Virus record (IMG/VR): IMGVR_UViG_3300027782_000032
Coordinates: 1-64,000 of that record
DNA from: a virus
Strand: one strand, 5' to 3'
DNA length: 64,000 nt
Shown piece after piece: positions 13,357 to 63,405 of the stretch (the first letter of the stretch is position 1; every line of letters begins with the position of its first letter). The translations under genes and the position numbers were made by a program. The notes under the pieces are model-generated. The model searched no databases. It had not been told where the DNA came from and saw only the letters and a program-made list of their open reading frames with translations.

Positions 13357-15150
13357 TTAGTATAGAACTGCTACAGCCTCTATTAGACCAACTTCTCCTG
13401 CGTAACCGTCTCCTGAAGATCTTTCTATGGAAAAGAATACTACGTCTTGCCCTTCTGCCCCAAGAATATCTTCGCTGTCTATGTCTATGTAGTGATCAGC
13501 CGATATAGATGACCCTGTGTCGATTATTAAAGCTGTGTCAGTAACAGGAAGAGGTTCAGGCGATCCTGATGATTTTGAAAGTATTCTGTAGCTTGCTGAC
13601 AGATCAGGCATAGTTCCTGAGGTTCTACCTAGCACTCTAAGTCTAAGCTTTAGCTTAGGAGTTGCTGGAAAAGAGTCAGCGTGCGGTAGAAGTACCTTTA
13701 GCCTTACTGAGCTTGCTTGATTAGGAGGGAACGCTAAGTACATGATATCGTTATAATATCGTTCTTTTGTATCACTAAGCCTAACTACTTGAGGCTGTAT
13801 TATTCGCTCAGATGGTTCAACGTTAGCTCTTATGGTAACTATACCTTGATGTATCGTATCGTCTCCGTCTACTCTGTTAAACGTTGACAATATAGTAACG
13901 CTGTTATCAGCCGCCCTAATGCCTTCTACTATCCTACCGCGTTGAAACTTTCCATTGTTTACAGACTTTAACGCTAGAGATCCAAGCGCCGCGTTGTTGT
14001 CTATAGCTAAGGCTAGATTAACACCTATCTTAAGCGCGCCTGTGTTTGTAGGCTTGTTATCGTAGCATCCAATAATTGTAATGCCACTGTTCTCTACAGG
14101 ATCAAGACTTGTCACTACGGTCTTATCAACTCCGTAAGCTGTCTTTGAAAATCGTAACAGCATCTTTCTTGTTACGTCTCTAGGGCACTCAGGTCCAGAT
14201 TCTGATGACGAACTACTGGAGTTGCTGCCTAGCTGATGGTAGGCCCATGGTACGTCGTTGTAGCAGTCTGACATCCACCATATACCGTTTATGTCTATTA
14301 CAACTAAACCCAGAGGTCCAAGAGGGAGCTCTACTCCATTTCCATCAGATTCACTTTTAAATAAAGTTATGCTTGCTGACTCTGCAGGCATAGGAGGAAA
14401 CACGCTGTATAGGCCAGTGTGTGTCTTAAGGTTATATCCAAAGGCAGCGCCAGTTGGAGCTAACCCATTAAATGAAGCATCGTCAGCTGGAAGCCAACCT
14501 GTCAAGTCACTGTCCACGTTAATAATAGTGTGCTTACCGTCAACACTAGGAGTAGGCGAATCTCCACATGCCGAAAGATAAAGGTTAAACTCATAATGAA
14601 CGTGGTTGTAAGGTCCGTCTCTTAGCTGAGGCTGAACATAGACAATTCCATTACCGTCTGCGTGCAGTACAGCTACGTCAGCTATTGCTGGCTTTTTTGA
14701 TAGTTTACCTTTAGTTTTTCCAGACAGATAGTATCTACCTGGAGTTACAGGTCCGCCTCCGTCTATTACAGAAGCTATGTCTATGTTGCCTTTACCTACT
14801 AGAAGTATGTCTGCAACTTCTTCAGAGTGCTTGTAAAGGGCTACTCCAATAACGTCACACATTGGAGACGTCTCCAATGTACGAGTCTCCATGTCGAACT
14901 CGTAACCTGCCAAAGCTCTGTCAAACCTAGATACGCTAGAGTTCCAGTAGACGGCCATGCCTACTGTTACTGCAGACTCTACTGGGCAGTCATAGGCTAC
15001 CAAGGCTTCCTTATTTTCAATACCGTCGATACGGTCTTTAAGATACCTTGATTGATTCTCAAGGGCTCTAGTTGGGCGGCTGTCTACTTTAGCTTCTACA
15101 GCCTCTCCGTCTTTTACGTGCTCTATTTTGTTTGTCCAAGATGATGACAT
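13357..15150 (-). CDS. Putative tail fibre / baseplate-attached protein
   Basis: 597 aa. The N-terminus VKDGEAVEAKVDSRPTRALENQSRYLKDRID resembles myophage tail-fibre anchor domains; position is downstream of the wedge genes. Confidence 0.55.
   Translation of the reverse strand: MSSSWTNKIEHVKDGEAVEAKVDSRPTRALENQSRYLKDRIDGIENKEALVAYDCPVESAVTVGMAVYWNSSVSRFDRALAGYEFDMETRTLETSPMCDVIGVALYKHSEEVADILLVGKGNIDIASVIDGGGPVTPGRYYLSGKTKGKLSKKPAIADVAVLHADGNGIVYVQPQLRDGPYNHVHYEFNLYLSACGDSPTPSVDGKHTIINVDSDLTGWLPADDASFNGLAPTGAAFGYNLKTHTGLYSVFPPMPAESASITLFKSESDGNGVELPLGPLGLVVIDINGIWWMSDCYNDVPWAYHQLGSNSSSSSSESGPECPRDVTRKMLLRFSKTAYGVDKTVVTSLDPVENSGITIIGCYDNKPTNTGALKIGVNLALAIDNNAALGSLALKSVNNGKFQRGRIVEGIRAADNSVTILSTFNRVDGDDTIHQGIVTIRANVEPSERIIQPQVVRLSDTKERYYNDIMYLAFPPNQASSVRLKVLLPHADSFPATPKLKLRLRVLGRTSGTMPDLSASYRILSKSSGSPEPLPVTDTALIIDTGSSISADHYIDIDSEDILGAEGQDVVFFSIERSSGDGYAGEVGLIEAVAVLY
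14859..14880. repeat. Dispersed palindrome copy 1 (22-bp perfect palindrome)
   Basis: ACATTGGAGACGTCTCCAATGT; core at 14863-14876, translated as LETSPM. Confidence 0.95.
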
Positions 15151-15164
15151 AAGCCTTACCTCTA

Positions 15165-15755
15165 TTATTTAAACTGTTCAGTCCAGCTTACGCCTATTTG
15201 ACTAGAAGCCTGCTTCAGAACCTGTTGGTTTGAAGGGTAATACTCCCTAGCGAATATAAGGTCTTTGGTTCTATCTTCCCACCTTGGTGTGGCAACTAAT
15301 GATAAACCAAATACCTTGCTATTAGCTCCTACTGTAAAAGGCTTTCCGTGGACACCTACGCTACCAGTCGTCTGGGCAAAGAAGGTTAACTGATTTACCT
15401 TTACCGATGCACCTTCATATCCAGATATCAATGAGGCCTTAGGGTTTGATATTAATTGAACTCTAAGAAAGTCTCTTGCTGGACTGGCAGATAAAGCAGA
15501 GTAATATTCAATACCGTCTGCTCTGTCAAATGATGGAGATGAAACTACGTCTTCAGGAGAAGATACGTTTTCAAACTCTATGTACATTCCGCTTATTTTA
15601 AATTCTTCTCTACCTTCTCCAAACAGCTTGCAGGCTATCTCTCCCCAGGTCCATTGAATCTGGTTATGAAACGTAGCTTTAGGCAGCCATAGACCGCTAC
15701 TTTCAATTTCGTAAGTACTTATAATACCACTTACTTCTGCTCTGTTGTTAGACAT
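15165..15755 (-). CDS. Putative baseplate/tail-collar protein
   Basis: 196 aa, beta-rich, between the wedge-like and fibre-like genes. Confidence 0.35.
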   Translation of the reverse strand: MSNNRAEVSGIISTYEIESSGLWLPKATFHNQIQWTWGEIACKLFGEGREEFKISGMYIEFENVSSPEDVVSSPSFDRADGIEYYSALSASPARDFLRVQLISNPKASLISGYEGASVKVNQLTFFAQTTGSVGVHGKPFTVGANSKVFGLSLVATPRWEDRTKDLIFAREYYPSNQQVLKQASSQIGVSWTEQFK

Positions 15756-15762
15756 CGTTACC

Positions 15763-18664: not shown

Positions 18665-19039
18665 TTATCCTTCAATAGAGTTTATTATGTTATTAACATC
18701 TTCCTCGTTTATCAACTGAGCTGCTGTTGATACAGCTTTCTCTATGATGGCTATAGCCGGATCACCTGCTACACCCTTTGGTATTTTTAGCTTGTTATCT
18801 TTAAGGCTATTTCTTATTACGCGTCTTATTTTAATCTTTTCAATTATGTTAGGGTCTCTTACGTGCTCCAGAGCTTCCTTAGGAGAGTACTTACACATTT
18901 GATTTAGCTTAACTAAATTAACTATTATAGACACTAAAGCCGACACTACTATAAACGTCTCTACTATAAACCCTTTGGCTTCTAGATCTTTTTGCAGCTT
19001 AGTAGACATCCTACCTGCTAGAGCTTCTACATTATTCAT
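18665..19039 (-). CDS. Hypothetical protein, one hydrophobic segment (start revised from 19108)
   Basis: AGGAAAGGA Shine-Dalgarno-like sequence precedes ATG 19039 (MNNVEAL...). Confidence 0.6.
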   Translation of the reverse strand: MNNVEALAGRMSTKLQKDLEAKGFIVETFIVVSALVSIIVNLVKLNQMCKYSPKEALEHVRDPNIIEKIKIRRVIRNSLKDNKLKIPKGVAGDPAIAIIEKAVSTAAQLINEEDVNNIINSIEG

Positions 19040-19054
19040 TTGGATTCCTTTCCT

Positions 19055-19070
19055 GTGGAGACGTCTCCAC
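19055..19070. repeat. Dispersed palindrome copy 2 (intergenic, just upstream of an RBS)
   Basis: GTGGAGACGTCTCCAC. Confidence 0.95.
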
Positions 19071-19080: not shown

Positions 19081-19260
19081 CTAATGTTCGTGCGCTTTGC
19101 AATCGCACTTAAGTCCACAACTTACAGTCATTTTAAGTTTACTGCAACAGCGATCATCAGCCTTATACACTAATACAGCGCCTATAACAGCGCCTACACA
19201 TAGCACTGCTAGTACTTCTATTAGCTGTATAATATTGTTTACAGATTTCTTAAAGCTCAT
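19081..19260 (-). CDS. 59-aa membrane protein with Cys-rich C-terminus (below ORF-track cutoff)
   Basis: MSFKKSVNNIIQLIEVLAVLCVGAVIGAVLVYKADDRCCSKLKMTVSCGLKCDCKAHEH*; fills the gap between co-oriented genes. Confidence 0.7.
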   Translation of the reverse strand: MSFKKSVNNIIQLIEVLAVLCVGAVIGAVLVYKADDRCCSKLKMTVSCGLKCDCKAHEH

Positions 19261-27958: not shown

Positions 27959-30900
27959 CTACTGTTTAGAAGAGTTTAGTAACCCACTTATCATTCCTTT
28001 AAATATGTCCATCTTGCCTGAGAACACAAGCGGCTGCTTAGAGTCAATAACAGCTACCATTTTTCCAGACTGAAAACTAGGGTCTCCTTCCTTACCTTGT
28101 AACATATTTTCTTTCTTTATTTTAGCGTCAGTAGCTCTTACCTTGGCGTTAACTTCTTTGGTTACCAGCTCTCCACCTTCACTTATCATATTAGCTTCAA
28201 CATAACCCTGAGCCGCAACGCCAGACTTAAGAGCCAACTGCTGCTTATTAAGGTTGGCATCAGGAGTAGAAAGCAGCTTTCTTAGCTCTTTTAGCCTTTC
28301 TTGAGGGCTAGCGTTAGTATTAGTCTTACCACTAAGATCGAACGCCTCCCTAGCTGCATATGACAGGCTAGAGCTTACTCTATTGAAGGCCTCCCTTTGA
28401 TCTCCAGTGGAGACGTCTCCAAATGATTTGCCTTCAAACTTCTTACCGTAAAAAGCCTCCTTAGAAACGTTAAACTCTTCTTGGAAGAATTGCATAGGGC
28501 TTTTTGCTTTGCCAACATCCTGTATCATTATGGCTTTAGCCTTATCGATGTTTTCTCTTTGTTTATCACTAAGCTTTGGACCCTCTCCTGAATAGTTTTG
28601 TACGCTTAAGTCTGTAAGTAAAGATGTTAGGTGATCAGTCTCGGCTGTACTAAGCTTAGCGTAGCTGTCCTTTCCTAAGACTGCAGCTTTAGCTGATGCA
28701 TTAAACCCAGCCATCTTTTCTAAAGCAGCCTCCTTATCTTTATCTAATATCTTGCCTTTATTGATGTATTCTTTAATTTTAGCTTGAACTTTTGGATCTT
28801 TAAGTTGCTTACGCCTCTCGTCTTCAGTTCTTAGAATAATTGGAAGAGATTTAAAATCCTCTGGACTTAATCCTGACTTTTCTTGAAGCGCTTTATACCT
28901 TGCTGTTTCTTCATCAGTAAGTCCTGCCCCTCCTTCGCTCTTAGCCGTTATAGCTTCAAATTCAGCTATATCAGCTTCACTTTTAAACCTACCTTTAAGT
29001 AGAAGTTCTCTAGATTTTTTCTTATCTACAAGCTCTTGGTGTCTAGCTTTATCTTTGTCAGTAAATTCTTTGTTCTTAAACTCGTCAAACTGGCCTGGTT
29101 TAATATCCTCTTTTTTATAACCTATTCTTAAGTTATCGATGTATTTTCTGTGTCTACTGCCACCTTCCTCGTACTGCTTAAGATTTATAAAGTTGCCTGA
29201 TTCTACTTCAGCATCAGTAGCTCTTACGGCTTTTCCGTCCTTAATTACAAAAGACTCACCATATTTAATGCCAGCCTGTTCAGCTTTGTTAACGTTGTAT
29301 AGCTGAGCTAGGTCAGCTTTCTGTTGGTCTTTGTTTTTAGATGTGTATCCAGAAAGCTTAAGTATGTTTCTTATATCTTCAGACTTCTGAGAGTCATCAT
29401 TAGAAAACATTTGTAGCTCTTGAACTGAGCTATACTTGTTTAAAAGTTGACTTACAGCGTTTTTGTTCTCAGCATCGAACTCTCTTCCAAACTCTTTAGT
29501 TAGCTCAACTACCTTAGAGCTAGCAGATTCTCTTTTTTTATCTTCTAGCTTTTTTAGCTCATCTTTATCTCTTTCATTAAACGTACTAGTGGCTTCTTTA
29601 ATGCTATTATCAAGATCGTAACTTTGTTTCTTTTTACGCTCGTCATCACTCATTGGGCTTGTTCTTGCTACCAGCCTTAAAGCCTCATCTCTATCGGAAC
29701 CTGTTAGGGTCTTAAACTTAGATTCTTGAGCTCCAGAGTCTTTTATAACCTTAGATATTTCTTCTTTTATTTTGTCTCTTTCTTTAGGAGATTTTTCGTT
29801 CGATAGCGCTGCTCTTAGTCTAAGTACCTTGCTACGTTCCTCATCTGTAGGTTCAACTGCAGCAGCCAAGCTGTCTTTCTTTATGTTAAGTTTGTCTAGG
29901 CCTGTTGCTTCAATATACTTATCTATGGCTGTGTCGTTGCTTTTCTTAGCAGCCTCTGCTTCAGTAAAGCTCTTGTAAGCTGCTTTTATTGCTTTCTCAG
30001 ATCCTTCGGTAAGGCTTTCTGAAAGCTTAGTGGCCTTATCTTTAGCAGCGCCAAGGTTCTCTGATTTAATGTCTAATAGTCCTTGAAGCCTCTCAGCCTT
30101 TCTTAAATCTTTAGGGTCCTTAGACTCACTAAGAGTTTTTACTTGGGCAGTTAGATTTGCTCTAGCCGTTAAAGCCATTCCAGGAACTGTAGATGACAGT
30201 TCTGTCAAAACGTTTATATCGTCTTTATTTTCAGCTTGAAGGTCTTTAAAGTTAAAGTTGACCCTAGACAGGTCTTTATTCATGTACTCCTCTCTAGTCA
30301 CACCAAGCTCGTTGCTTGAATTAGAAATACGGTTTAGAGCTATAGCCGCCTTATCTCTTATTTCTAATCCCTTCTTGCCTCCTTTCTCTAACAGTCCTCC
30401 TTCATTAGTTGTGTATCTGTCTAGGAAGTTTCTAGCCATGTCTAAGCCATAAGCTGCTTCTCCAGGATCAGCATTATTTATTTGTTTATTTATGTCATTA
30501 ACTTCTTTAAGACCTCCAGTAGCGTTGCTCATGAATCCAGCAGCAGTGAATTCTATTCCAGCCTTTTCAAGTATAGTCTTAAGCTCAGCCTGCTTTGTAC
30601 CTTTGCCTATTAGGGCTAGTTCTCTAGTGCTCTTTGTCTTAGCTTCATCAGCAGTAACTCCATGCCTATCTTTAAAGCTATTAATGTTTGATCTAGCAGT
30701 GGCTTCATAGTCTTTTGAATTCTTTTTAGCTTCGTTAACTATAGAAGCGTAGGTTGAGTCAACTCCGCCTGTGGTTGCTAAATCTGACTTTATAAGTTGA
30801 TCTTTAAGCTGATTCCTTTCTCCTTCAAGCTGTCTTCGTTTGTCTTCGGTTATTCCTGGCTTGGCCAACTCAGCGTCATTAAGGGCTATAGCGTTGTTTA

Positions 30901-33151
30901 AGTAGTCGTGCTTAACTTTGTCAGCGTCGTACTCGTTGTAAGCTGTTGACGCCTCTTTAATCTCACGGAACAAAGGTGCAAATCTTTCTTGTACCTTATC
31001 TTTTGGTACAAAGTTAAGTACAGCTGCTGCAGCATCTGAAGCGCTAGTTTTACTGTTTGCGTTCCTTACAAAGTCAGTAAGTCTTTGTGTAAGGTCGGTC
31101 TTACCAACATCTGCAAGCATAGACTCAAACCCACTCTGCTGCTGAACTTCAGCGCTGCTTATCCTAGCTTCCTCTAACACCCTAGTGCTTAGAGTAGCCT
31201 GAGCATCAGGAAGTGATTGGTAACCTGAGGACTTAGCCCACTGAAGTGATGAGTCGGCTATACCGCCTGCTGCTGATGCTAGGAATCTTTCGTCTGATGG
31301 TTTATCAAACTTGAATCCCCTCTTTCTAAGACTACTTTCAAGAGATTTCCTAATTGTTACTTCAGGCTTACCTATCTCATCTTTAGGAGCGTTAATTAAC
31401 GCTTCTGCAGCTTCTTTGTTAATTTCGTTAGCTGTAGCTTGGTCTGTGAAAGCTGACTTTACGTCTTTGCTAACACCTTCCATAGCCTTATCGTCTTTTG
31501 AATACCTAGCAAAGTTCATGCTGTTTCTATCGGATAACTCTGTAATAGCTCCAGCATTCTGCATAGGCCTTCCTACGTTTGATCCCATGTTGTACTTAAA
31601 CATGTACTCTTCGTTAGCTTCTTGAGTTGCTTGTAAGTCTTGAACTAAAGATACAGGCATACCGCTTTTTAAAAGGAATTCACTTACTCCTCCTGGCTGC
31701 CTAGACAATTCGCTTAGGGTTTTCTTTATCTTGTTTCCCTTGGCATCTGTAGTTTCATAGACTCCACCAGACGACGGGTTTGTTATAGCTTTGTATACTG
31801 ATTCTAGTTCTGAGCCTTCGGTAGGCTTAAACTTATATCTATCAACTGCTCTAGCTATGTTAGCTATTTGATTTACCCTAGGGTCCTTTAAGGCTTGAGT
31901 GTTAAGCTGCTGTTGAATGTCCATAATTTTGTCAGAAGAGCTAAGACCAAAGGCTGTAACGCCTCCATACATACGCTTAGACGCGTCATTCTCTAGAACT
32001 GACTGGTTTGTAGTACCAGGCACGAATACTCTATTTACACCCATCCTGTCAGCCATTCCAGCAGAGGCTCCCATAAGCCTAAACATCTCTGGCATTTCTA
32101 TGCCGGCTGCCTTAGCTGTGTTAGAGGTATCTCTAACCATCTTTTCAAGTTTGTGAGGTTCCATTCCTTGCATGTTAGCTTGAGTTAAAGTTTCTATAGC
32201 TCCTACAAGCTGAGACATTGGAGCATTGCTTTCTCCCATCTCTCCAAACACTTCTTGCATAGCCGCAACAGCCTTTGACATACCTTTAAGTCTTCCAGCT
32301 ATTTTATCTGCATCAAACTGTCTTAACCTAGCGTCTAAGTCTGGCATGTTAGATACTTCACCTACTGTCTTGTCAAGCTGCTCAGCTATTTTACGAATAC
32401 CCTCTCCTCTGCCGCCGCTATTAGGCATAGCTCCTCTACGTTGAAGCTCGTCGTATAGTGCGCCTGTTTTACCTGCTGTAAGCCCATTCATCTGAGACAC
32501 TTCAGCTCTATCGCCGTACAACCTTTCGTACACATTCTTGCTCAGCTCTCCTACAGAGTTGGCGCTCATTCCTCGCCTTCCTGTAACTGGGTCGGTGGCG
32601 TACCTTGCACCCTTGAACATGTTCTGAGCCATAACAGTGGCAGAACCTCTAGTACCGTTAAGACTGTCTACAAAGTCAGGAGCAAACTGCGCAGCCATAG
32701 GCATAAAGCCGCTGATAGTCTCAGCCAGCTGGTTGGCTGACTCACGCTCACGGGCTCCAAACCTTTGTCCTGTAAGCGCTGCTGTTCCTTGGATCATTTT
32801 AAAGATGGAGCCTTTGTCTACCTGAGACGCGTTGCCCATAGCTATGGACTGTCCCCTTAAAGCATCACCCATTCTCATTTGGCTATATAGATTACCTCCA
32901 GCCGAGAACTGAGCAGGCATGTATTTGTTGCCTATAAAGCTGGTTAGTAATGGCTGCATTATGGTATTGAGCATAAGGCTCATACCTGGGTCTTGTGTTC
33001 CTATTAAGCTTGCTATGTTAAAAGAGTCACCTATAGCTCCTAGTTTTCTTCCTTGGGCTATAGGAGGCTGCGCTATATTCTGAGCAAACGTATTAGGTAC
33101 AGGTGCGAACTCAGCGTACTGAGAAGCGTAGTTAGGTGTGTTGTAGGCCAA
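27959..33151 (-). CDS. Tail tape measure protein
   Basis: 1730 aa, Ala/Lys/Glu-rich and helical, no Cys; lies between the chaperone-like pair and the baseplate genes. Confidence 0.8.
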   Translation of the reverse strand: MAYNTPNYASQYAEFAPVPNTFAQNIAQPPIAQGRKLGAIGDSFNIASLIGTQDPGMSLMLNTIMQPLLTSFIGNKYMPAQFSAGGNLYSQMRMGDALRGQSIAMGNASQVDKGSIFKMIQGTAALTGQRFGARERESANQLAETISGFMPMAAQFAPDFVDSLNGTRGSATVMAQNMFKGARYATDPVTGRRGMSANSVGELSKNVYERLYGDRAEVSQMNGLTAGKTGALYDELQRRGAMPNSGGRGEGIRKIAEQLDKTVGEVSNMPDLDARLRQFDADKIAGRLKGMSKAVAAMQEVFGEMGESNAPMSQLVGAIETLTQANMQGMEPHKLEKMVRDTSNTAKAAGIEMPEMFRLMGASAGMADRMGVNRVFVPGTTNQSVLENDASKRMYGGVTAFGLSSSDKIMDIQQQLNTQALKDPRVNQIANIARAVDRYKFKPTEGSELESVYKAITNPSSGGVYETTDAKGNKIKKTLSELSRQPGGVSEFLLKSGMPVSLVQDLQATQEANEEYMFKYNMGSNVGRPMQNAGAITELSDRNSMNFARYSKDDKAMEGVSKDVKSAFTDQATANEINKEAAEALINAPKDEIGKPEVTIRKSLESSLRKRGFKFDKPSDERFLASAAGGIADSSLQWAKSSGYQSLPDAQATLSTRVLEEARISSAEVQQQSGFESMLADVGKTDLTQRLTDFVRNANSKTSASDAAAAVLNFVPKDKVQERFAPLFREIKEASTAYNEYDADKVKHDYLNNAIALNDAELAKPGITEDKRRQLEGERNQLKDQLIKSDLATTGGVDSTYASIVNEAKKNSKDYEATARSNINSFKDRHGVTADEAKTKSTRELALIGKGTKQAELKTILEKAGIEFTAAGFMSNATGGLKEVNDINKQINNADPGEAAYGLDMARNFLDRYTTNEGGLLEKGGKKGLEIRDKAAIALNRISNSSNELGVTREEYMNKDLSRVNFNFKDLQAENKDDINVLTELSSTVPGMALTARANLTAQVKTLSESKDPKDLRKAERLQGLLDIKSENLGAAKDKATKLSESLTEGSEKAIKAAYKSFTEAEAAKKSNDTAIDKYIEATGLDKLNIKKDSLAAAVEPTDEERSKVLRLRAALSNEKSPKERDKIKEEISKVIKDSGAQESKFKTLTGSDRDEALRLVARTSPMSDDERKKKQSYDLDNSIKEATSTFNERDKDELKKLEDKKRESASSKVVELTKEFGREFDAENKNAVSQLLNKYSSVQELQMFSNDDSQKSEDIRNILKLSGYTSKNKDQQKADLAQLYNVNKAEQAGIKYGESFVIKDGKAVRATDAEVESGNFINLKQYEEGGSRHRKYIDNLRIGYKKEDIKPGQFDEFKNKEFTDKDKARHQELVDKKKSRELLLKGRFKSEADIAEFEAITAKSEGGAGLTDEETARYKALQEKSGLSPEDFKSLPIILRTEDERRKQLKDPKVQAKIKEYINKGKILDKDKEAALEKMAGFNASAKAAVLGKDSYAKLSTAETDHLTSLLTDLSVQNYSGEGPKLSDKQRENIDKAKAIMIQDVGKAKSPMQFFQEEFNVSKEAFYGKKFEGKSFGDVSTGDQREAFNRVSSSLSYAAREAFDLSGKTNTNASPQERLKELRKLLSTPDANLNKQQLALKSGVAAQGYVEANMISEGGELVTKEVNAKVRATDAKIKKENMLQGKEGDPSFQSGKMVAVIDSKQPLVFSGKMDIFKGMISGLLNSSKQ
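28407..28421. repeat. Dispersed palindrome copy 3
   Basis: GTGGAGACGTCTCCA inside the tape measure gene (GDVST). Confidence 0.95.
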
Positions 33152-33172
33152 GTCTATAACCCTCCTGGCTAG

Positions 33173-33469
33173 TTACTTAGTCTTCTTAGGATCTAACCAC
33201 GGCATAGAAGCGTCTGAATAGTCTTGCACCAAGTTTCCTATGGTATCCCAAGCTTCATTGAACAAATCAGCAGTACCGTAGCCCAAGGCACCAGTATACC
33301 TTAAAATTGCAAGTTTAACCACTTCTGCAGATTTATTTGCAGTGTAAGACTTGGCAAGCCATTTTAGCTTGAGCTGCCACTTGCGATCGAGAAGGTTAGC
33401 GTCTTTGAAGTCGACGATTCCTTTGGCGGCCATCTCTATTAATACAGAGTTTACTCGATCGCTTTCCAA
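33173..33469 (-). CDS. Putative tail assembly chaperone, downstream part (possible -1 frameshift extension)
   Basis: 98 aa; TTG start without a clear RBS; overlaps the upstream ORF in the -1 frame; directly before the tape measure gene. Confidence 0.45.
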   Translation of the reverse strand: MESDRVNSVLIEMAAKGIVDFKDANLLDRKWQLKLKWLAKSYTANKSAEVVKLAILRYTGALGYGTADLFNEAWDTIGNLVQDYSDASMPWLDPKKTK

Positions 33470-34683
33470 AAAGTCGGAGACTCGGCCATTACCTGTAGCT
33501 TGTCACATAGAGACTGAAACTCGAAGTACGCATGCCCTATAATCGACCTTGTGCTTTCTAGTGGTAGGTAGTTGTCAAGAACGTGATTCAAAAATGGAAC
33601 CAGCTTGTTTTGAAGCTTTATAGGTCCTGAGTCAGGCATCTCGATTTCTGCTTCTTCTAATGAAGGAATACTAACCCTGCCGTAATCTACAGACTCTATG
33701 CTGTCTAAAGACATCACCATTCTATAGGCTTGAAGGTTTCTCCAGTAGAAGTCGGTACCGCCAATAATCCTGCTGTTATAGTCCAGCTGTCCGTCTATTA
33801 CTATCTGCCGGTAAGCTATGTCAGCTTCCTTAGTGGTTATAGCTTTAAACACAACCTTGTACTTACCATCAAACATTTCATATGATTTCTTAAACCTTAT
33901 ACTTCCTAAAATAGATTGAACAAAATCAAACTTATCTTCAGGAGTTACGTCAGTTAAGTCTTCTCTCTTAAGGTCCCACCCGCAGTGAGGGCAGTTAGGC
34001 ATTAAGCTAATAGCAGACGGCTGGTATTCCTGAGCTGGAGCAGTGTATTCCACGTGAGGTCTTGGCTCCTCTTTATAAGTCTGAGGCCTAGAAGCTTCAG
34101 CTGCAGGTGATGCTATGTCATTTATGAATGATAAGTTGTTTTCTTTGTATACTGGCTTGGCTGCTTCAGGTTTAGTGGAGACGTCTCCACTAATAACAAC
34201 AGGTTCTTCTTTTTTAACTATCTCCTCTTTTTTAACAGGCTCAGGCTCATTAGGCTTAAGGTGGTCTGGTAAAATTGGAGGTTTGAATGGGTTAGCCTTA
34301 TCTACTGACCTCTTAAAAGCATCATCATGCATCTTTTTTAACGAGTCGTATCTTTCCTTGTCAGACACTATCTCGTTTAGAAGCGCCATACCCTCTTCTA
34401 TTTGCCTTCTTTGCTGAGCTGAAACTTTATCAAGAGAAACAGGAGTTTTAACTTTTTGAAGTAGGTTTCTATAGGCCGCCATATCCTGCTCAGATGCCTC
34501 TTCCTCTACTGCAGGTTTGACTTCTTCTTTTTCAGGCTTAGTTGGTGATACCTCTTCTATTGCTTTTTGAAGCTCTTCAAGCTTTCCTTCTTTTTGAAGC
34601 ATTAAAGCTTTTATTTCAAAATCCGTAAGAGAAGACAGCTTAGCCTTACCAGCTAGCGGTGGGTCTTTCTCATTCTCACTCAT
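33451..34683 (-). CDS. Putative tail/baseplate assembly chaperone with CxxC
   Basis: 410 aa; low-complexity charged N-terminal half, CPHCG, globular C-terminal domain; synteny. Confidence 0.4.
   Translation of the reverse strand: MSENEKDPPLAGKAKLSSLTDFEIKALMLQKEGKLEELQKAIEEVSPTKPEKEEVKPAVEEEASEQDMAAYRNLLQKVKTPVSLDKVSAQQRRQIEEGMALLNEIVSDKERYDSLKKMHDDAFKRSVDKANPFKPPILPDHLKPNEPEPVKKEEIVKKEEPVVISGDVSTKPEAAKPVYKENNLSFINDIASPAAEASRPQTYKEEPRPHVEYTAPAQEYQPSAISLMPNCPHCGWDLKREDLTDVTPEDKFDFVQSILGSIRFKKSYEMFDGKYKVVFKAITTKEADIAYRQIVIDGQLDYNSRIIGGTDFYWRNLQAYRMVMSLDSIESVDYGRVSIPSLEEAEIEMPDSGPIKLQNKLVPFLNHVLDNYLPLESTRSIIGHAYFEFQSLCDKLQVMAESPTFWKAIE
34172..34193. repeat. Dispersed palindrome copy 4 (22-bp perfect palindrome)
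   Basis: TTAGTGGAGACGTCTCCACTAA. Confidence 0.95.
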
Positions 34684-34702
34684 AGCATCCCCAGTCCTTT
34701 AG

Positions 34703-37354: not shown

Positions 37355-37371
37355 TGTAGGTATCCAATCAT

Positions 37372-37416
37372 AAAAAAGAACTGCCGTACGCCCCTATTGT
37401 GAGGTGTACGGCAGTT
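37372..37416 (-). terminator. Rho-independent terminator after the tube genes
   Basis: 11-bp stem AACTGCCGTAC/GTACGGCAGTT followed by CTTTTTT on the minus strand. Confidence 0.85.
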
Positions 37417-37442
37417 ATTTTCAATAGCACTAAACGTATAGA

Positions 37443-41259: not shown

Positions 41260-41296
41260 GATAATCGGCCTCCATGCCTGTTTAGTTCGCCCCGTC

Positions 41297-41920: not shown

Positions 41921-42117
41921 TACTTATTGCCTTTATTCATAAAACTAAAGTCAGGCTGCTTGTACGGTGTTGGCTGGATCATAGGTGGAAGCTCATTCTT
42001 TTTAGTGGAGACGTTTCCACTGAGCATCTTTACATGTGATGCAATCTTATCAAAGCTAGACTCATGACCAAACAATGAGTTTGATTCCATCATTCTAGGA
42101 GCTCTTTTTTCCATCAT
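41920..42117 (-). CDS. Small K-x-A motif protein
   Basis: 65 aa (EKRA, DKIA); overlaps both neighbours. Confidence 0.5.
   Translation of the reverse strand: MMEKRAPRMMESNSLFGHESSFDKIASHVKMLSGNVSTKKNELPPMIQPTPYKQPDFSFMNKGNK
42004..42021. repeat. Dispersed palindrome copy 5 (1 mismatch)
   Basis: AGTGGAGACGTTTCCACT. Confidence 0.85.
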
Positions 42118-49795: not shown

Positions 49796-51232
49796 TTAGC
49801 AGATGACGTTGTAAGCAAGAACAGCCCTTCGATAGTTGTGTTCTGCCGTTTCGTTCGCTGATGCCGCCTTGATCCACTGAAGCTGATGAACTGCATAAGC
49901 TTTAGCTAATGCTTCATATTTATCTGATGTTTCAGCTGTTTTATCCATTTGCTTAATAATGTTAGGAAGCCTAAACCCTGAAATAACAGCCATGTGTACG
50001 CTGCTCTCTAGGCTCTTGTTACTAACAGAGTGGGCAGCTGCACACTTGTAAGCTTCCATGTTTTGTTTTTCTGTAGAAATACTTAATGAAGGGTCTGAGT
50101 TCCTGTCAGCAAGCTTTTCAATAGTGGAGACGTCTCCAATGATCCTACTGAAGACTCCTGGCATGTATTTCTTTACTTCGCTGGCAAGTTTGTCATGCCC
50201 CTTAGCTAGCAACCAGTCTTCCAAAGAAATAATTATCCCCTGCTTAGCACATGCTGACCAAGGGAAGGAGCCGCCCATTGCTGCTTGTTTCCAGAACGGT
50301 AACGGTCTAACTCTAGCATTGATAGTAGCTAGAAGCACTGGGCTGTAAGCACTTGCAGACTTTTCAAGCTCAGCCATCTTAACAGCTGCTTCGACCATTT
50401 TCGTGATGTCAGCAGAAAGGTCTCCACCTAGCACTCCTACTGGAGCGCCGACGCCAGCAAGTTCAGCTAGTTCAGCTCCGCCAGCTACATACACGCCTGA
50501 AGCTGCTTTATAATGACCTACTACCCAAGCTATGCGGTCTGCTGGTCTATAAACGTCGCTAATATCGAACCAAGTTGGATTGGGGTTATCTACATGCAAT
50601 ACGTGTCCGTCTGAAGCAACCTTGGTAAGGTTACCTCGGCAGCCGCCGTACTTGCACATGTCTTCAGTACAGTATTCGTCTCTGTTTCTAGCTTTGTTAC
50701 CGCAGCCTGAACAGACGTCATGAGCTACTCGGCACGCCATGCTGACGCCCCAGTTATCATCTCCAGAAGCAATCTTCTGCATTTCCTTGTCAGCTACTAG
50801 ACCTTTGTTTCGTTCTGCAGCTTCTTTAGTTGAATTAAGTGCAACTATTAGTTCGACTCTCTTCATCTTGTCATTGAACATGGAAGCTTTAACTAAGCCA
50901 TAGCTTTGTTGTGGGTCTTTATTCTTATGGTTTCTGTACCATCTAGCGTGCTTTACGAACGTGTCATGGTACTTGCGGCATGTGGCTTCTTTGAAACCAT
51001 CACCGTTTCTATTTGGTCCGTAAGCTTCTGTAGCTCCTATAGCTATCATGTGTATAGGTTGCTCACCAGGCTTGAAGTCTATTCCTTTTAGAAGATGGGC
51101 AGCGCCGTCTCCAGCTCTCTTAATAAACGATGACAGGTCTGATCCTACTAAGCCTTTAGAGGATACCTTAATTAGGGAGCTTACTGAATCTCCGAAGTCC
51201 TGAGAGTTCGGAGCTATAATTTTGATCATCAT
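49796..51232 (-). CDS. Prohead maturation protease (assemblin-like) with Cys-cluster insert
   Basis: NRNGDGF...RNHKNKDP...SMACRVAHDVCSGCGN...YC...WFDISDVYRPADRIA; K-x-A-rich C-terminal half. Confidence 0.72.
   Translation of the reverse strand: MMIKIIAPNSQDFGDSVSSLIKVSSKGLVGSDLSSFIKRAGDGAAHLLKGIDFKPGEQPIHMIAIGATEAYGPNRNGDGFKEATCRKYHDTFVKHARWYRNHKNKDPQQSYGLVKASMFNDKMKRVELIVALNSTKEAAERNKGLVADKEMQKIASGDDNWGVSMACRVAHDVCSGCGNKARNRDEYCTEDMCKYGGCRGNLTKVASDGHVLHVDNPNPTWFDISDVYRPADRIAWVVGHYKAASGVYVAGGAELAELAGVGAPVGVLGGDLSADITKMVEAAVKMAELEKSASAYSPVLLATINARVRPLPFWKQAAMGGSFPWSACAKQGIIISLEDWLLAKGHDKLASEVKKYMPGVFSRIIGDVSTIEKLADRNSDPSLSISTEKQNMEAYKCAAAHSVSNKSLESSVHMAVISGFRLPNIIKQMDKTAETSDKYEALAKAYAVHQLQWIKAASANETAEHNYRRAVLAYNVIC
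50124..50138. repeat. Dispersed palindrome copy 6
   Basis: GTGGAGACGTCTCCA inside the protease gene. Confidence 0.95.
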
Positions 51233-57334: not shown

Positions 57335-57691
57335 TTATCTAGGCCGCATACTGAGAATATTTTCAGTTAAGCTTCCGCTCTTCATAAGCTCAAGCATGAC
57401 CTCTGCCATCTTAGCATAATTATTACCTTGGGTGTTAGTGGAGACGTCTCCACTACTTTGAGCCACTGCTGCTGCTTGATTTGACACAGGCGGCAGCATC
57501 GTAGAAGGGGCCATAAGAGCTGGCGAAGTGTTAACGTTCTTTACATCTTGAGGTGATGGTTTTTCTGATTTTGCTGCAGATAAAGATGGTGAAGCCCCTG
57601 CAGAAGGAATGGTGGGAGCAGTCAATGGCTTTAAAGCTGAAGGCTTACTAGGCTGACCCATGTTAGCCCACTTGTGTATAAAGTCGCTCAT
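57335..57691 (-). CDS. Low-complexity K-x-A protein
   Basis: 118 aa, Pro/Ser/Ala-rich; its start overlaps the beta-prime stop (TAATG). Confidence 0.55.
   Translation of the reverse strand: MSDFIHKWANMGQPSKPSALKPLTAPTIPSAGASPSLSAAKSEKPSPQDVKNVNTSPALMAPSTMLPPVSNQAAAVAQSSGDVSTNTQGNNYAKMAEVMLELMKSGSLTENILSMRPR
57436..57455. repeat. Dispersed palindrome copy 7 (20-bp perfect palindrome)
   Basis: TAGTGGAGACGTCTCCACTA. Confidence 0.95.
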
Positions 57692-59610
57692 TATAAAACT
57701 CCGTCATTTTCAATTGGTTTAAGTATTTCACTCTTAGGTTTTTCTACTTTAAATCCTTTTACTGGACCGCTCTTACCAAAGTCTACAGCCTTGGCTAATG
57801 ACGGCACATAGGACGTGCCCTTCTCGTCGCTTACCGCACCACGATGCACGGCATTTAAAGTTGACTTTCTAAGATTGCTTCCAAGCATTCTAGTCATCCA
57901 GTCTGGGTCATGCTGAAGGTTTTCCAAACCCCTAACGAAGTGAGCTTCAAACGGAGCAGGGTCTTTGTGAACAGTAATCTTAGAGACACCAAACTCATTT
58001 AAGTCTTTTATCATAGAAGGCTTGATAGGAGTCCCTATACTGTAGTGCAGCACGGGCTGCTCAAGGTATTTACCAATAGCTTCTCTTGGATTTACTATGG
58101 TATGTCCTTCTCTAGGTTCCCAATCGTGTTCTACCGAGTCATAAGGTACGACGTCGTCTGGAGCGTACTGCTTGTACTCATCGCTCATCTTGACGTGATT
58201 GATAAGGCCTTTCGACATGACTTCTATGTTGCGTCTGTTTCCAGACATGCCTGCGCCTTTCATGGCTCCTTTAAAGGCTTGTACAAACTGACGCCTACCT
58301 TCACCTATTCCTTTGAACCTAGTAAGCATAGCAGGGTTGGCAATACCGTCAGACAATGTGTCCCCAGCCTCTACTACATCGTTAAGCTTCACAGACAAGT
58401 TTACTCCAGGGTTTACGTGGTGCTCAACTCCGTCTATCGCTATGAATGTGCCACCTGTAGGAGCTTCTTTAATTCCAGTAACCTTACCATCACGCTGAGC
58501 ATGAGCTGCCCAGTAAGGAGACTGCTTAGGTGATTGAACAAGCTGGTTTAAGTGTTTAAAGCCTGAGACTGCCCCAGCTGCTCCAGCTACTCCACCTGTG
58601 TGCTTAGAGCTTAGCTGACCTTGAGAAATAGGCTCGGATAGAGCTTGCATAGCGGCAATACCTATGGCGTCGCCTATTGGAGCAAAGCTGCCTCTTTCCC
58701 TTATGCCTAAATCTCTAGAGTATAGCCCTCCGTCAGGAGCTCCAGTTGCTATAGGGCTTCTTACTAAGAGCCTTTTTACGTTGTTAGCCTTTAAGTCTTT
58801 TATAACTCTAGGTGTAAGCACGGTGTTTCTAGCATAGCCCCCAGCTGCCATAGCTAGAAGCGCGCCTTCGTTATCATCATCCTCTATGTCTACAGGAAGT
58901 CCACGGCTTTCAAACCGTTTAGGATCGTCAGCGTCGTCACCTACGACAACCATTCTATGACCTATCTGATTTAGCTGTTTTGAAAAGAATCCAGCGTCCA
59001 TTGTTGCGAACTTAGTATCAGCAACTCCTTTACGGGCACCGAATGCTCCAGCAAAGTACTCAGCAGGATTTAAGCCTTTAGAGTATGAGTTGAACACAGG
59101 AATGGGAATAGCATTATCGTGATGATCGGTGTAGAGTAGATCTCCACCTCTAAGGCTTTTAAGGTTCATCGGCTTACCACGCGACCCTGACTGAATCTGT
59201 CTAGCTAGCTGGTTACCTTCTCGTAGTGAGTCATCAAATATGCCTTTTTCCATACCGCTTTGAGCATTGTTAAGCAGCTCAATCATACTACTATTTTTAG
59301 TGTCTTCATCTATTCTAGAGTTTCTCATTATTCCATCTATAGCTAGCTTTAGCTTAGCCTTAGCGTCTATAGAGTGATTAGACTCCCTTAGGTCTTTTAG
59401 TCCGAATGAAAATCCTCCACTGTTATAAGACACATCTCTACCGATATCAAAAAGCTTCTTTGATATGTCTTTGTACTTCTCTGGATGATTTTGAGCTATG
59501 ATCTGCATAAGCGAAGCAGAAGCTTTTGAATCTAAAGATCTGGTGTAATCTCTTAGCTCTGCAGGAAGGGCGTCGTTAACCATGATCTGACCTATGGTGG
59601 TCTTAAGCAT
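57691..59610 (-). CDS. rpoC: RNA polymerase beta-prime, C-terminal piece (bridge helix, trigger loop, clamp end)
   Basis: KTTIG; GSRGKPMNL; NSYSKGLNPAEYFAGAFGARKGVADTKFATMDAGFFSKQL (bridge helix); GDAIGIAAMQALSEPISQGQLSSKHTGG (trigger loop). Confidence 0.93.
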   Translation of the reverse strand: MLKTTIGQIMVNDALPAELRDYTRSLDSKASASLMQIIAQNHPEKYKDISKKLFDIGRDVSYNSGGFSFGLKDLRESNHSIDAKAKLKLAIDGIMRNSRIDEDTKNSSMIELLNNAQSGMEKGIFDDSLREGNQLARQIQSGSRGKPMNLKSLRGGDLLYTDHHDNAIPIPVFNSYSKGLNPAEYFAGAFGARKGVADTKFATMDAGFFSKQLNQIGHRMVVVGDDADDPKRFESRGLPVDIEDDDNEGALLAMAAGGYARNTVLTPRVIKDLKANNVKRLLVRSPIATGAPDGGLYSRDLGIRERGSFAPIGDAIGIAAMQALSEPISQGQLSSKHTGGVAGAAGAVSGFKHLNQLVQSPKQSPYWAAHAQRDGKVTGIKEAPTGGTFIAIDGVEHHVNPGVNLSVKLNDVVEAGDTLSDGIANPAMLTRFKGIGEGRRQFVQAFKGAMKGAGMSGNRRNIEVMSKGLINHVKMSDEYKQYAPDDVVPYDSVEHDWEPREGHTIVNPREAIGKYLEQPVLHYSIGTPIKPSMIKDLNEFGVSKITVHKDPAPFEAHFVRGLENLQHDPDWMTRMLGSNLRKSTLNAVHRGAVSDEKGTSYVPSLAKAVDFGKSGPVKGFKVEKPKSEILKPIENDGVL

Positions 59611-59612
59611 GA

Positions 59613-61780: not shown

Positions 61781-61805
61781 AGTAGTCTCCAAAGTTTAAT
61801 AACCC

Positions 61806-61897
61806 AGCTGAAAAGACTTCGTCGCTCTGACGCACTTCCGCTTCGAGCGTCGATTAGTCCCAGGAGAGTGCTAAAACAGGCCCTAGCCTTTCCAGCT
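61806..61897 (-). ncRNA. Candidate structured RNA (three-way junction) in intergenic leader
   Basis: 12-bp closing helix AGCUGGAAAGGC/GUCUUUUCAGCU enclosing CUAGGG/UCCUGG and GACGC/GCGUC stems. Confidence 0.35.
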
Positions 61898-61911
61898 AAG
61901 TACATATAATA

Positions 61912-63405
61912 TTACTCTTTACTTCCAATTTGTTTAAGTACATTTAGGAATTTTTCATTAAGTTTCTGCTTACGATTGGCAGCGTTGATCAAGTAGTCAT
62001 CTGTTGCAGGGATAGGGTCTGCACCTATACCTATATGACGCAGCAAAGATCTTAGTCTTCCTGGAGCAGTCCTAGCTATGTAACGTTCTATTGAAACTTT
62101 TCTGTCTTCTGGATCAAGATGGTCATGGCTGTCAAACCTAAGAGCTCGGCCTTCGCTCTGGCTGCTTCTAGCTGTATTCCAGTGAGGGTCAAGCAGTTGA
62201 ACTAGCTTGGTACCTTTAAACGACAAACCTTCTGTTCCTGCTGGACCTAGCAAAGCTACCTTAAGCTTATCGCTGTTGTAGTCGTCAACCAGTCTTTTAC
62301 GCTCTTTATCTGATAGTGCACCTGTAAACGAAGCTGCAGGAATACCTGCTCTGTCTAAAGCGGCTTGGTAAGGCGACAACCCTGCATCGATAAAGTTGGA
62401 GAAGATAAGAGCTTTGCCTTTAGGGTCTTTGTCTAAAAGCCCCTTAAGATTACCAAACGCTGTAGTAAGCTTTGGAGAATCATCGAAAGCTTTTTGAATG
62501 TCTTTGTTTTCTTTCATGAACGGAAGTGTTGAAAGCCCTACCTGCCTAAGCCCTGTCATAAAGCTAGACATTCTGCTTACTTCATCTTTTGTTAGAGGGT
62601 AGTTCCTCTCTAGCTTCCACCTAAGTACAGTAGGAAGCTGACCCATTATATGGCTGTTAAGGTCTGTCTGATCTCGGTTCATTTCTACGACTACGTCTTT
62701 GCGATTAACTTCAGCCTTGGGAGCTAGCGGTGCAAAGTAGTCTACCTTACCTTTTAGCTTGTCTTTAAGTTGCTGCTGATTAATTATCTCTGGCTCTGCT
62801 GGATCTGAGTTTAGAAGTCTGTTGTACCAAGTAGGACTGGCTGTGTCTTTTACATAAGTGTCTTCAAACTCATTCTTACTAACGTCCTCTCCTGTAAGTA
62901 TGTTATACGGCAATGTAAAGTCGCTAGGGTCATTTACCACTGGAGTGCCGGTAAGCATCACAACCTGTTTTGCTTTTCTAGCAGCCTCCATAAGGTTCTT
63001 AGCTTGAGCGGACGCTGGGTTTCTAAATCTGTGAGCTTCGTCTATTAGAATAGAGCCTGGGTTATCTATTGGTTTTCCAAGTGCTAGGCCGGTATGACTC
63101 ATGACGCTGCTAGGTGTTGCAGTGTCTTGGTCTATAAACTTCTCTTGCTCCTTGCGTAAGTTGTTACGTAAGGCAGCAGGAACTACAGCTGTGTAAGGTA
63201 TCTTTGACTCGTCTGCTGAAGCTAATCCGCTTAAAGTCTTACCAGAGCCAAGACTATGGTAAAGCAGCATGCGAGCTTTACCAGTTGTGTCTAGCTGTTT
63301 CTGTACCTTGTCCACTACTCCCTGCTGGTGTGGCTGCAGAGAGATATTAGGATTTAGATCGGCTTGTTTTGTGGAGACGTCTCCACTGTTGTACTCTTGG
63401 GTCAC
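61912..63405 (-). CDS. SF2 SNF2-like helicase/translocase
   Basis: LQPHQ; LYHSLGSGKT (I); LIDEAHRFRN (II); LTGTP (III); AGTEGLSFK...LLDPHWN...QSEGRALRFDSH (V/VI). Confidence 0.92.
   Translation of the reverse strand: MTQEYNSGDVSTKQADLNPNISLQPHQQGVVDKVQKQLDTTGKARMLLYHSLGSGKTLSGLASADESKIPYTAVVPAALRNNLRKEQEKFIDQDTATPSSVMSHTGLALGKPIDNPGSILIDEAHRFRNPASAQAKNLMEAARKAKQVVMLTGTPVVNDPSDFTLPYNILTGEDVSKNEFEDTYVKDTASPTWYNRLLNSDPAEPEIINQQQLKDKLKGKVDYFAPLAPKAEVNRKDVVVEMNRDQTDLNSHIMGQLPTVLRWKLERNYPLTKDEVSRMSSFMTGLRQVGLSTLPFMKENKDIQKAFDDSPKLTTAFGNLKGLLDKDPKGKALIFSNFIDAGLSPYQAALDRAGIPAASFTGALSDKERKRLVDDYNSDKLKVALLGPAGTEGLSFKGTKLVQLLDPHWNTARSSQSEGRALRFDSHDHLDPEDRKVSIERYIARTAPGRLRSLLRHIGIGADPIPATDDYLINAANRKQKLNEKFLNVLKQIGSKE
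63371..63386. repeat. Dispersed palindrome copy 8
   Basis: GTGGAGACGTCTCCAC in helicase codons ~7-12. Confidence 0.95.

Follow-up and report, generated by a model that had tools for sequence, protein, structure and literature searches.

RacA/ram of Bacillus subtilis and MatP/matS of E. coli rest on palindromes of 13–14 bp, about 25 copies of which run through genes over a large region. Both systems are cellular and serve a single macrodomain, and their readers, which bridge or anchor DNA, combine a small DNA-binding domain (MerR-like and ribbon-helix-helix in fold, respectively) with a coiled coil. Temperate phages carry tens of copies of repressor sites, mostly intergenic, such as the Cluster A stoperators (L5 gp71) and the conserved inverted repeats of phiC31; the stoperators are asymmetric and oriented with transcription. 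The OB sites of the plasmid protein KorB lie in part directly upstream of a −35 region and in part far from promoters. As in the phage described below, they are a short palindrome that recurs throughout a replicon, that of IncP plasmid RK2. They are read by KorB, a dimer with a helix-turn-helix of ParB type, which acts as a CTPase sliding clamp; a ParA-type partner and the KorA lock belong to the same system (PMC11790492).

Among published systems, the Cluster O mycobacteriophages come closest, with a 17-bp dyad repeat (PMC4351075). This repeat, TGTTCGG-NNN-CCGAACA, is present in more than 30 invariant copies per genome, both intergenic and genic (Cresawn et al. 2015, PMC4351075). The repeats occupy mostly the same places in relatives, are lost through single base changes, and occur about once per 2 kb of a 70-kb genome, with many in one operon (PMC4351075). 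Binding of a dimeric protein was inferred by the authors, who thought promoter control unlikely and noted that the repeat is absent from host genomes; their report gives no even spacing, positional turnover, reader or function (PMC4351075).

We analysed a 64-kb stretch of DNA (the window) from an uncultured, tailed phage whose virus record spans 190,371 bp (~190 kb). It carries a palindrome with a 14-bp core (TGGAGACGTCTCCA), an exact palindrome length of 14–18 bp and the extended consensus Y-AG-TGGAGACGTCTCCA-CT-R. The window holds seven exact copies and one copy with a single mismatch:

14863..14876, in a 597-aa gene (13357-15150, minus strand): exact copy, a 22-bp perfect palindrome including its flanks, read as LETSP.
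19056..19069, intergenic, directly ahead of the ribosome-binding site of gene 18665-19040 (minus strand): exact copy.
28408..28421, in a 1730-aa gene (27959-33151, minus strand): exact copy, read as GDVST.
34176..34189, in a 410-aa gene (33451-34683, minus strand): exact copy, a 22-bp perfect palindrome, read as SGDVST.
42006..42019, in a 65-aa ORF (41920-42117, minus strand): one-mismatch copy TGGAGACGTTTCCA, read as GNVST.
50125..50138, in a 478-aa gene (49796-51232, minus strand): exact copy, read as GDVST.
57439..57452, in a 118-aa gene (57335-57691, minus strand): exact copy, a 20-bp perfect palindrome, read as SGDVST.
63372..63385, at codons 7–11 of a helicase-like gene (61912-63405, minus strand): exact copy, read as SGDVST.

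An earlier note on this DNA had reported these seven exact cores, the single-mismatch core and the gaps between them, and all were reproduced. The longer palindromes that it described were recovered at 14863 and 34176 (22 bp each) and at 57439 (20 bp), as were its frames, with a GDVST-type reading in six genes (GNVST at 42006), LETSP at 14863 and an intergenic copy at 19056. Across the whole 190,371-bp record the motif was found 26 times, in 23 exact and three one-mismatch copies, against approximately zero expected, and none of 100 dinucleotide-preserving shuffles of the window contained a match. The earlier note had named an assembly artefact as one way in which its reading could fail; this is contradicted by the presence of the motif in seven independent metagenome assemblies. 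No near-identical phage was found in GenBank for positions 33000–41500 of the window.

The array resembles the Cluster O repeats in kind only: both are invariant inverted repeats spread genome-wide through genic and intergenic DNA, with positions shared among relatives and no enrichment in bacterial genomes. It differs in that the Cluster O repeat is unrelated in sequence, has a 3-bp spacer and is denser, and in that even spacing and turnover are described only for the present clade. The sites are like those of RacA and MatP in being short palindromes that run through genes, and unlike them in spanning the whole genome. They share with stoperators and the phiC31 repeats the tens of copies of one site across a phage genome.

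Five related metagenomic phage contigs (65–92% nucleotide identity) carried the same motif, mostly in orthologous places. With the motif masked in the alignment, 43 of the 58 alignable orthologous positions in these relatives kept it with at most one mismatch, while proteins across the compared relatives were 32–97% identical. Within the window, copy 14863 was unchanged in the corresponding codons of G001, G002 and G003, and copy 50125 was exact in the same three. The intergenic copy 19056, which lies 11 nt past the stop of a small ORF, had orthologues at 96461 in G001, 9676 in G002 and 9559 in G003, the last with one mismatch. Copy 57439 was exact in G001 and G002 and had one mismatch in G003; copy 42006 was exact in G002 and G003 and carried a different single mismatch in G001. 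Copy 34176 was retained in G001 and G002, and G003 had a site in the same gene about 60 bp away. Two copies were less widely shared. Copy 28408 is private to this lineage, the aligned place in G001 and G002 showing eight mismatches, and in its place G003 had a site at ~25213 (G000 coordinates). Copy 63372 was exact in G002, decayed in G003 (two mismatches) and absent from G001, which instead had a site 3.1 kb away at ~66482 (G000 coordinates).

The earlier note had proposed looking in relatives for sites gained or lost in orthologous codons, and both were seen. Sites decayed through 1–5 substitutions, and a lost site was replaced by a stretch of the same length with no insertion or deletion (for example at 148885, 102455 and 66482). 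In several intervals each lineage had its site at a different position (63372 versus 66482; 102455 versus 104770; 148885 versus 149799 versus 152426), and there are signs that lost sites are replaced nearby. These alignments bear on the possibility, also raised in the earlier note, that the motif is a miniature mobile insertion spreading through the genome. Scattered identical units, three of them beside swappable gene cassettes, would fit such an element, but relatives without a site show other letters in an aligned stretch of the same length, target duplications are absent, and flanks are common only to the three cassette-promoter copies. A mobile origin is therefore extremely improbable.

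Genome-wide, the 26 copies fell into all three reading frames (10 GDVS, 8 ETSP and 4 WRRL) and into intergenic DNA (4 copies), which indicates that the DNA is selected and not the peptide. This bears out the earlier note, which had held that selection acts on the DNA, and the motif was moreover letter-perfect where its flanks were only 65–75% identical. The mean density was about one palindrome per 7 kb, unrelated genes included. The genome-wide map also allowed the regularity of spacing to be assessed, as the earlier note had suggested. The 26 copies were more evenly spaced than random, with a coefficient of variation (CV) of the gaps of 0.52 versus 0.94 under chance (P ~6e-4). All six genomes were under-dispersed (gap CV 0.35–0.58 versus a null of ~0.9), which, given their common ancestry, does not amount to six independent observations. 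Lineage-private sites were also more evenly placed than random insertion would give (P = 0.013 and 0.051). A strict period was rejected, as gaps ranged from 0.5 to 15 kb.

The variation within the motif distinguishes between recognition by a protein and folding of the nucleic acid itself. The 27 one-mismatch variants were concentrated at half-site positions 2, 5 and 6, and positions 1, 3, 4 and 7 were almost fixed. None of nine two-mismatch variants carried a symmetric (compensatory) change. Flank preferences were mirror-symmetric, while per-site complementarity of the flanks was at chance (0.59 vs 0.59, 0.50 vs 0.57 and 0.33 vs 0.31). Together the mismatch pattern and the chance-level complementarity point to two half-sites that are read independently, which argues for a symmetric protein dimer and against an RNA hairpin or a DNA cruciform. 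A hairpin acting in transcripts as a processing, stability or termination signal would have every copy transcribed, since the genes are co-directional (200 of 222 ORFs on one strand), and the 18-mer is able to give a 7-bp stem with a 4-nt loop. Against it stand the single-arm changes in 27 variants with no compensatory doubles, a central ACGT that is self-complementary and would be unneeded in a loop, and the lack of a T-run 3′ of the motif. A spacerless palindrome of 14–18 bp is also short for cruciform extrusion, and independent variation of the two arms speaks against the cruciform that the earlier note had offered as an alternative. We consider either structure very unlikely.

A dimer reading these sites could be supplied by the host, for example a nucleoid-associated protein or regulator recruited or titrated by the phage. 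The core AGACGTCT is identical to the E. coli MetJ met-box consensus, so that cellular repressors are able to read such a core, and the phage-encoded reader discussed below is itself a candidate, in whose place a host protein could equally serve. The 18-mer, however, had only seven matches, each in a different genome, among 185,579 species genomes, where about nine were estimated from database size alone, and all seven lay in places unrelated to this phage. At this level, no bacterial chromosome represented there carries it as a repeat, and we regard a host protein as an improbable reader.

The phage encodes a candidate reader outside the window, a single-copy protein of 302 aa (126391-127299, minus strand; L094:2391-3299). 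It has a predicted ParB/KorB-like helix-turn-helix domain, with a weak and consistent likeness, followed by a C-terminal coiled coil. The AlphaFold2 model had a mean pLDDT of 74.6, with 84–93 over most of residues 60–170. All of its top ten Foldseek matches were ParB, Spo0J or Noc, at weak E-values of 0.02–0.1 (E>0.01). VIA-align, in which Z<8 is common among helical proteins, matched it to ParB 6s6h_B (Z 7.9, rmsd 9.8, 133 aligned), Spo0J 1vz0_A (Z 6.8, rmsd 5.0, 110 aligned) and the KorB-operator structure 1r71_A (Z 6.2, rmsd 3.7, 112 aligned), and a profile of the candidate's family reached ParB chains at E = 0.009–0.016, ranked after coiled-coil noise. Each of these matches is weak, and they are mutually consistent. 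Modelled as a homodimer the candidate scored 0.78 versus 0.01 for the best control, a mark that was attained by 20 of 30 proteins whose solved structure is a pair of one chain and by 1 of 23 whose solved structure is a single chain; contact agreement between runs was at least 67%, partner pLDDT was at least 79, and the predicted assembly was symmetric. The candidate's putative recognition helix (S-T-x-Y-K-T) was invariant across the clade, like the motif. In each of the seven contigs with the candidate gene, a perfect site lay ~410–470 bp past it, a likeness to ParB/KorB–parS, where a short palindrome of 13–16 bp is near or in the gene region of its reader. Since the motif carriers all come from one clade, co-occurrence of candidate and motif is uninformative.

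A search for a paralog of the candidate gene found none. The candidate family comprised 487 representatives at E up to 0.001; distant homologues were not located among viral, genomic or metagenomic contigs, a tblastn search of GenBank phages with P0033 had no match, and an ESM Atlas search with the candidate domain returned unnamed clusters only. No other binder of symmetric sites was among the Pfam families listed for 157 further ORFs (the 25 most-matched families per batch), and another reader could be hidden among the many ORFs without a family match.

The earlier note had proposed a phage-encoded DNA-binding protein and had invoked parS among its models. The first part stands as the best reading, with a ParB/KorB-like candidate present; the extension to a parS/ParABS system does not. 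ParB_N (PF02195, the ParB CTPase domain) was absent from the candidate's hmmscan matches at E up to 10, and a six-frame search of the phage's own genome, of such low sensitivity that it missed DUF1016_N too, also gave none. A CbiA/ParA family search of this genome for a ParA-type ATPase gave one match below cut-off (14.9 bits, E = 0.003). Integrase families gave no match in a search of equally low sensitivity; like those for ParB_N and HTH_35, it is a weak negative. With no CTPase domain in the candidate and no ParA or integrase found, this is not a parS/ParABS system. The candidate differs from KorB in the first two of these respects, and its replicon is an apparently lytic phage and not a plasmid. 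Its predicted pairing of a DNA-binding domain with a coiled coil is like that of RacA and MatP, and its predicted ParB/KorB-like fold sets it apart from both. As the missing CTPase domain is the one that lets ParB and KorB spread, the 7-kb spacing has no worked-out mechanical reason.

In hmmscan the candidate had a below-threshold Pfam match to DUF1016_N (E = 1e-4). Elsewhere, N-domains of this type mostly occur in fusion with a PD-(D/E)XK nuclease, which lends some weight to the idea that a sequence-specific enzyme (nuclease, nickase or recombination enzyme) acts on the sites to make programmed breaks or recombination hot spots (for example for recombination-dependent replication or T5-like virion nicks). 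An exact 14-bp palindrome would suit a homodimeric endonuclease, and indels lay beside sites in several alignments. Yet hmmscan found no nuclease domain in the candidate, restriction-type or HNH families were not among the Pfam families listed for the 157 ORFs (the 25 most-matched per batch), a palindrome-cutting homodimer would break the genome into ~7-kb pieces, and contigs of 75–190 kb assemble straight across the sites. We judge such an enzyme unlikely.

A repeated, strand-specific element, CTTAAT...GCGTCATAAT, is considered promoter-like from its position, strand bias and repetition only, and a standard sigma-70 scan did not call it a promoter. Three of the 26 sites adjoin its −35-like part, beside swappable gene cassettes, and this arrangement was seen only in the present lineage and its closest relative. 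Autoregulation at these three cassette promoters was dropped, as no DNA-binding domain was detectable in the three genes behind them. A bound protein might instead act as a genome-wide transcription roadblock or silencer, like the Cluster A stoperators or long-range KorB repression. Control of read-through is a plausible need where 200 of 222 ORFs share a strand, the three adjoining sites would suit this role, and sigma-like ORFs together with a gene resembling RNA polymerase beta-prime suggest that the phage transcribes its genes in stages. However, 23 of the 26 sites are distant from promoter-like elements and G001–G004 have no adjoining site at all. The palindrome and its flank preferences are symmetric, unlike the asymmetric, oriented stoperators, and, as no integrase was found, nothing hints at a lysogenic state that would need silencing. 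A roadblock thus appears rather unlikely as the general function, and a local effect on the three cassette promoters may exist in this lineage.

What was observed, namely the sites, how they are conserved, how evenly they are spaced and that their half-sites vary independently, leads us to infer that the palindrome is a docking site, about every 7 kb chromosome-wide, for a DNA-binding protein that the phage encodes and that binds as a two-fold symmetric dimer, with the 302-aa protein as candidate reader; we put the probability of this reading at roughly 0.6. New sites would arise by point substitutions in tolerant gene stretches and intergenic gaps, and selection would maintain every letter of the site as well as a more or less even density. 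The candidate would form a homodimer through its coiled coil and dock on the palindrome by its ParB/KorB-type helix-turn-helix. Our best guess for the consequence of docking is that the phage DNA is bridged, compacted or coated along the whole chromosome. More tentatively, and as a possibility that we would not favour at present, a ParB-type domain that lost or never had the CTPase clamp, joined to a dimerising coiled coil, may read a selected ~7-kb lattice with nearby replacement of its sites, by which a large and apparently lytic phage would scaffold, compact or mark its whole chromosome.

Arrays of palindromes across whole phage genomes have been known from the literature since 2015 (Cluster O), with neither a reader nor a function assigned. 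The present clade offers a clean case, in which an exact site is forced into unrelated genes and kept at 65–75% background identity, and for which a candidate reader can be named. If the candidate binds, what the phage gains from a lattice of sites (compaction, compartment targeting, protection or global transcription control) would become addressable, and the system would bear on whether ParB-type domains work without a CTP clamp.

A motif search of the 64-kb window returned seven exact copies of the 14-bp palindrome TGGAGACGTCTCCA and one copy with a single mismatch (42006), the same tally as in the earlier note and far beyond chance: none of 100 dinucleotide-preserving shuffles of the window matched the motif. 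Inspection of the flanks confirmed the longer perfect palindromes that had been claimed, of 22 bp at 14863, 22 bp at 34176 and 20 bp at 57439. The reading frames of the window copies were also as described, with six GDVST-type readings, one LETSP and one intergenic copy:

19056: intergenic palindrome copy, flanked by the stop codon of a small ORF and by the next gene's ribosome-binding site

The small ORF (19081-19259, minus strand), which was not in the 100-aa ORF list used, stops 11 nt before this palindrome; its product is a peptide of ~59 aa, hydrophobic and rich in cysteine. Across the whole 190,371-bp record the motif search found 23 exact and 3 one-mismatch copies, and GAGACGTCTC occurs 24 times, against 0.12 occurrences expected from base composition. 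Of the sites in the whole genome, 10 read as GDVS(T), 8 as ETSP and 4 as WRRL, and 4 are intergenic. The consensus beyond the core is itself symmetric (Y-AG-core-CT-R).

Five related IMG/VR phage contigs from different samples (G001-G005, 65-92% nucleotide identity) each contain 11-21 copies of the motif. For orthology, the motif was masked in both genomes before alignment, and sites were also mapped via protein alignments. The motif was kept with at most one mismatch at 43 of the 58 alignable orthologous positions, in proteins that are 32-97% identical. Where a relative lacks the site, the aligned stretch is equally long and the residues differ: at 148885, HLVETSPLI corresponds to TISILEPTI, of the same length, in a site-less relative, and the site-less counterpart of 66482 carries four substitutions in one half. 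These results indicate that sites are gained and lost by point substitution in orthologous codons, the comparison that the earlier note had proposed, and they speak against insertion of a unit as the origin of the sites. Indels adjoin many sites, in variable protein stretches, which suggests that their placement follows what the protein tolerates.

The proposed genome-wide spacing test showed gaps more even than random. On a circularised map, the coefficient of variation (CV) of the gaps among 26 sites was 0.55 versus 0.95 for random placement (P ~6e-4), and among the 23 exact sites it was 0.52 versus 0.94. Spacing was under-dispersed in all six genomes (CV 0.35-0.58), which share ancestry, so that these tests are not independent. 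Positional turnover is more telling than the CV of related genomes. The interval bounded by the shared sites at 141075 and 158093 holds a site at 148885 in the record's own genome (G000) and G005, at ~149799 in G003 and at ~152426 in G001 and G004. Likewise, a site at 66482 in G001 replaces the one at 63372 held by G000 and G002, a site at ~104770 in G001, G002 and G004 replaces 102455 of G000, and ~25213 in G003 is the counterpart of 28408 in G000. Private sites fall among shared ones more evenly than random insertion would place them (P 0.013 in G000, 0.051 in G001), which is suggestive, not conclusive. The longest palindrome-free stretch in both G000 and G001, and the only long one, measures 20-25 kb and spans the collagen-like gene:

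1-7254, minus strand: collagen-repeat ORF of >2400 aa that runs off the contig start (Pfam Collagen, E 1e-214), probably a fibre gene

Palindromic arms might serve as an RNA stem or a cruciform, the latter being the alternative held by the earlier note, or as the two half-sites of a protein dimer. Among 27 one-mismatch variants in the six genomes, half-site positions 2, 5 and 6 accounted for 8, 7 and 8 cases, and positions 1, 3, 4 and 7 were almost invariant. None of nine two-mismatch variants in these genomes was symmetric. Flank preferences mirror each other left and right, and flank complementarity at individual sites was no higher than marginal frequencies predict (0.59 versus 0.59, 0.50 versus 0.57 and 0.33 versus 0.31). 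The lack of symmetric doubles and the chance-level flank pairing indicate that the arms evolve as two independently read half-sites, which fits a symmetric protein dimer and not an RNA stem or cruciform; both of the latter are therefore disfavoured. At its core the earlier proposal held that a phage protein recognises the palindrome as DNA. This reading is the best supported, and we put at roughly 0.6 the probability that the palindromes are docking sites for a symmetric dimer encoded by the phage.

The 18-bp form of the palindrome was present once each in seven of 185,579 bacterial and archaeal species genomes, where about nine occurrences are estimated from database size alone, and none of the seven places was related to the phage. 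Thus, the motif is specific to this phage clade. A repeated element, CTTAAT(T/C)CA-N13-GCGTCATAAT, is present in 10 copies at 74529-183441 of the own genome and always on the coding strand, for example:

L093:2692-2720 (a stretch of the own genome outside the window), minus strand: intergenic copy of the element

The element resembles a phage-specific promoter class; a standard sigma-70 scan did not call it as a promoter. It often stands directly after a terminator-like hairpin. At 106712, 107242 and 109367, outside the window, a palindrome immediately precedes the CTTAAT part on its upstream side, each after a terminator-like hairpin or T-run. Such abutting sites are limited to G000 and its close relative G005, so promoter control would be no more than a local secondary use.

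Baseplate_J, tail collar and Gp10-like baseplate domains identify the record as a tailed phage. The minus strand carries about 200 of its 222 ORFs, an unusually strict one-strand gene order in a 190-kb phage, and GC and AT skew are negative throughout the window, matching this one-way order. Some of the transcription machinery may be phage-encoded, as the genome holds ORFs with sigma-70 region 3 and region 4 and the following gene:

57691-59610, minus strand: RNA polymerase beta-prime-like gene (Rpb1 domain 5, E 2.5e-18)

CsrA, PhoH and subtilase genes are found elsewhere in the genome. Comparison of the stretch 33000-41500 of the window with GenBank gave no close phage.

One protein was considered as the candidate reader of the palindromes:

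126391-127299 of the own genome (L094:2391-3299, L094 being a stretch outside the window), minus strand: single-copy gene for a 302-aa protein

Its homologues, at 39-97% identity, occur in this clade only and are invariant in a stretch around D-K-S-T-V-Y-K-T and W-S-H. In Pfam the candidate matched DUF1016_N only, below threshold (E 1e-4; 22.8 bits versus a cut-off of 32.8), and ParB_N was absent. The AlphaFold2 model has a mean pLDDT of 74.6, with 84-93 across most of residues 60-170. The best ten Foldseek matches, with weak E values of 0.02-0.1, were without exception ParB, Spo0J or Noc. VIA-align ranked the ParB DNA-binding domain 6s6h_B first (Z 7.9, rmsd 9.8, 133 aligned), Spo0J 1vz0_A second (Z 6.8, rmsd 5.0, 110 aligned) and the KorB-operator domain 1r71_A third (Z 6.2, rmsd 3.7, 112 aligned), Z values that are common among helical proteins. 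With coiled-coil noise set aside, the wider-family profile matched ParB chains at E 0.009-0.016. The homodimer model scored 0.78 versus 0.01 for the best control, a mark reached by 20 of 30 proteins whose solved structure is a same-chain pair and by 1 of 23 whose solved structure is a single chain. Contact agreement between runs was at least 67% and pLDDT at least 79, and the predicted symmetric interface comprises residues 184-269 and 30-90; the modelling supports a putative homodimer. Each of these structural lines is weak. All seven contigs with the gene have a perfect palindrome ~410-470 bp downstream of it, and all seven belong to one clade. Among the matches listed, at most 25 families per batch, in a Pfam scan of 157 other ORFs, the only nucleic-acid binders were sigma-like ORFs, a weak HTH_35 and a CsrA homologue. 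If the palindromes are docking sites, the chance that this protein is the dimer falls somewhat short of even.

The wider family of the candidate has 487 members (representatives), P0019-P0037 among them, with an N-terminal helix-turn-helix domain and a coiled coil. In many members the C terminus is a basic tail that closes with R-R-P, and several are on contigs of 50-213 kb. Distant members on long contigs are P0023 (67.8 kb), P0031 (67 kb), P0033 (213 kb), P0034 (187 kb) and P0166 (44 kb). Look-alike clusters of the candidate family in the ESM Atlas belong to Planctomycetota and viruses.

RacA/ram and MatP/matS combine a small DNA-binding domain and coiled coil with ~25 intragenic palindromes of 13-14 bp, a plan to which the array and the candidate can be likened. 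Cluster O mycobacteriophages provide the nearest published parallel, a 17-bp dyad repeat with 34 invariant copies in Corndog within and between genes; its positions are mostly common to relatives, and copies are lost by single changes (PMC4351075). Its authors inferred binding by a dimeric protein, considered transcriptional control unlikely and gave no function (PMC4351075). Closest in mechanism are the OB sites of RK2 and their reader KorB, a CTPase sliding clamp that acts together with KorA and can reach promoters at distances of up to 1.5 kb (PMC11790492). Unlike KorB, the candidate has no CTPase domain, and family searches of the own genome gave neither a ParA nor an integrase above cut-off, so the parS analogy of the earlier note does not extend to membership of ParABS or KorAB. 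The analogy holds in part: by comparison with these systems, the palindromes would function in the manner of a dispersed centromere or an array of operators.
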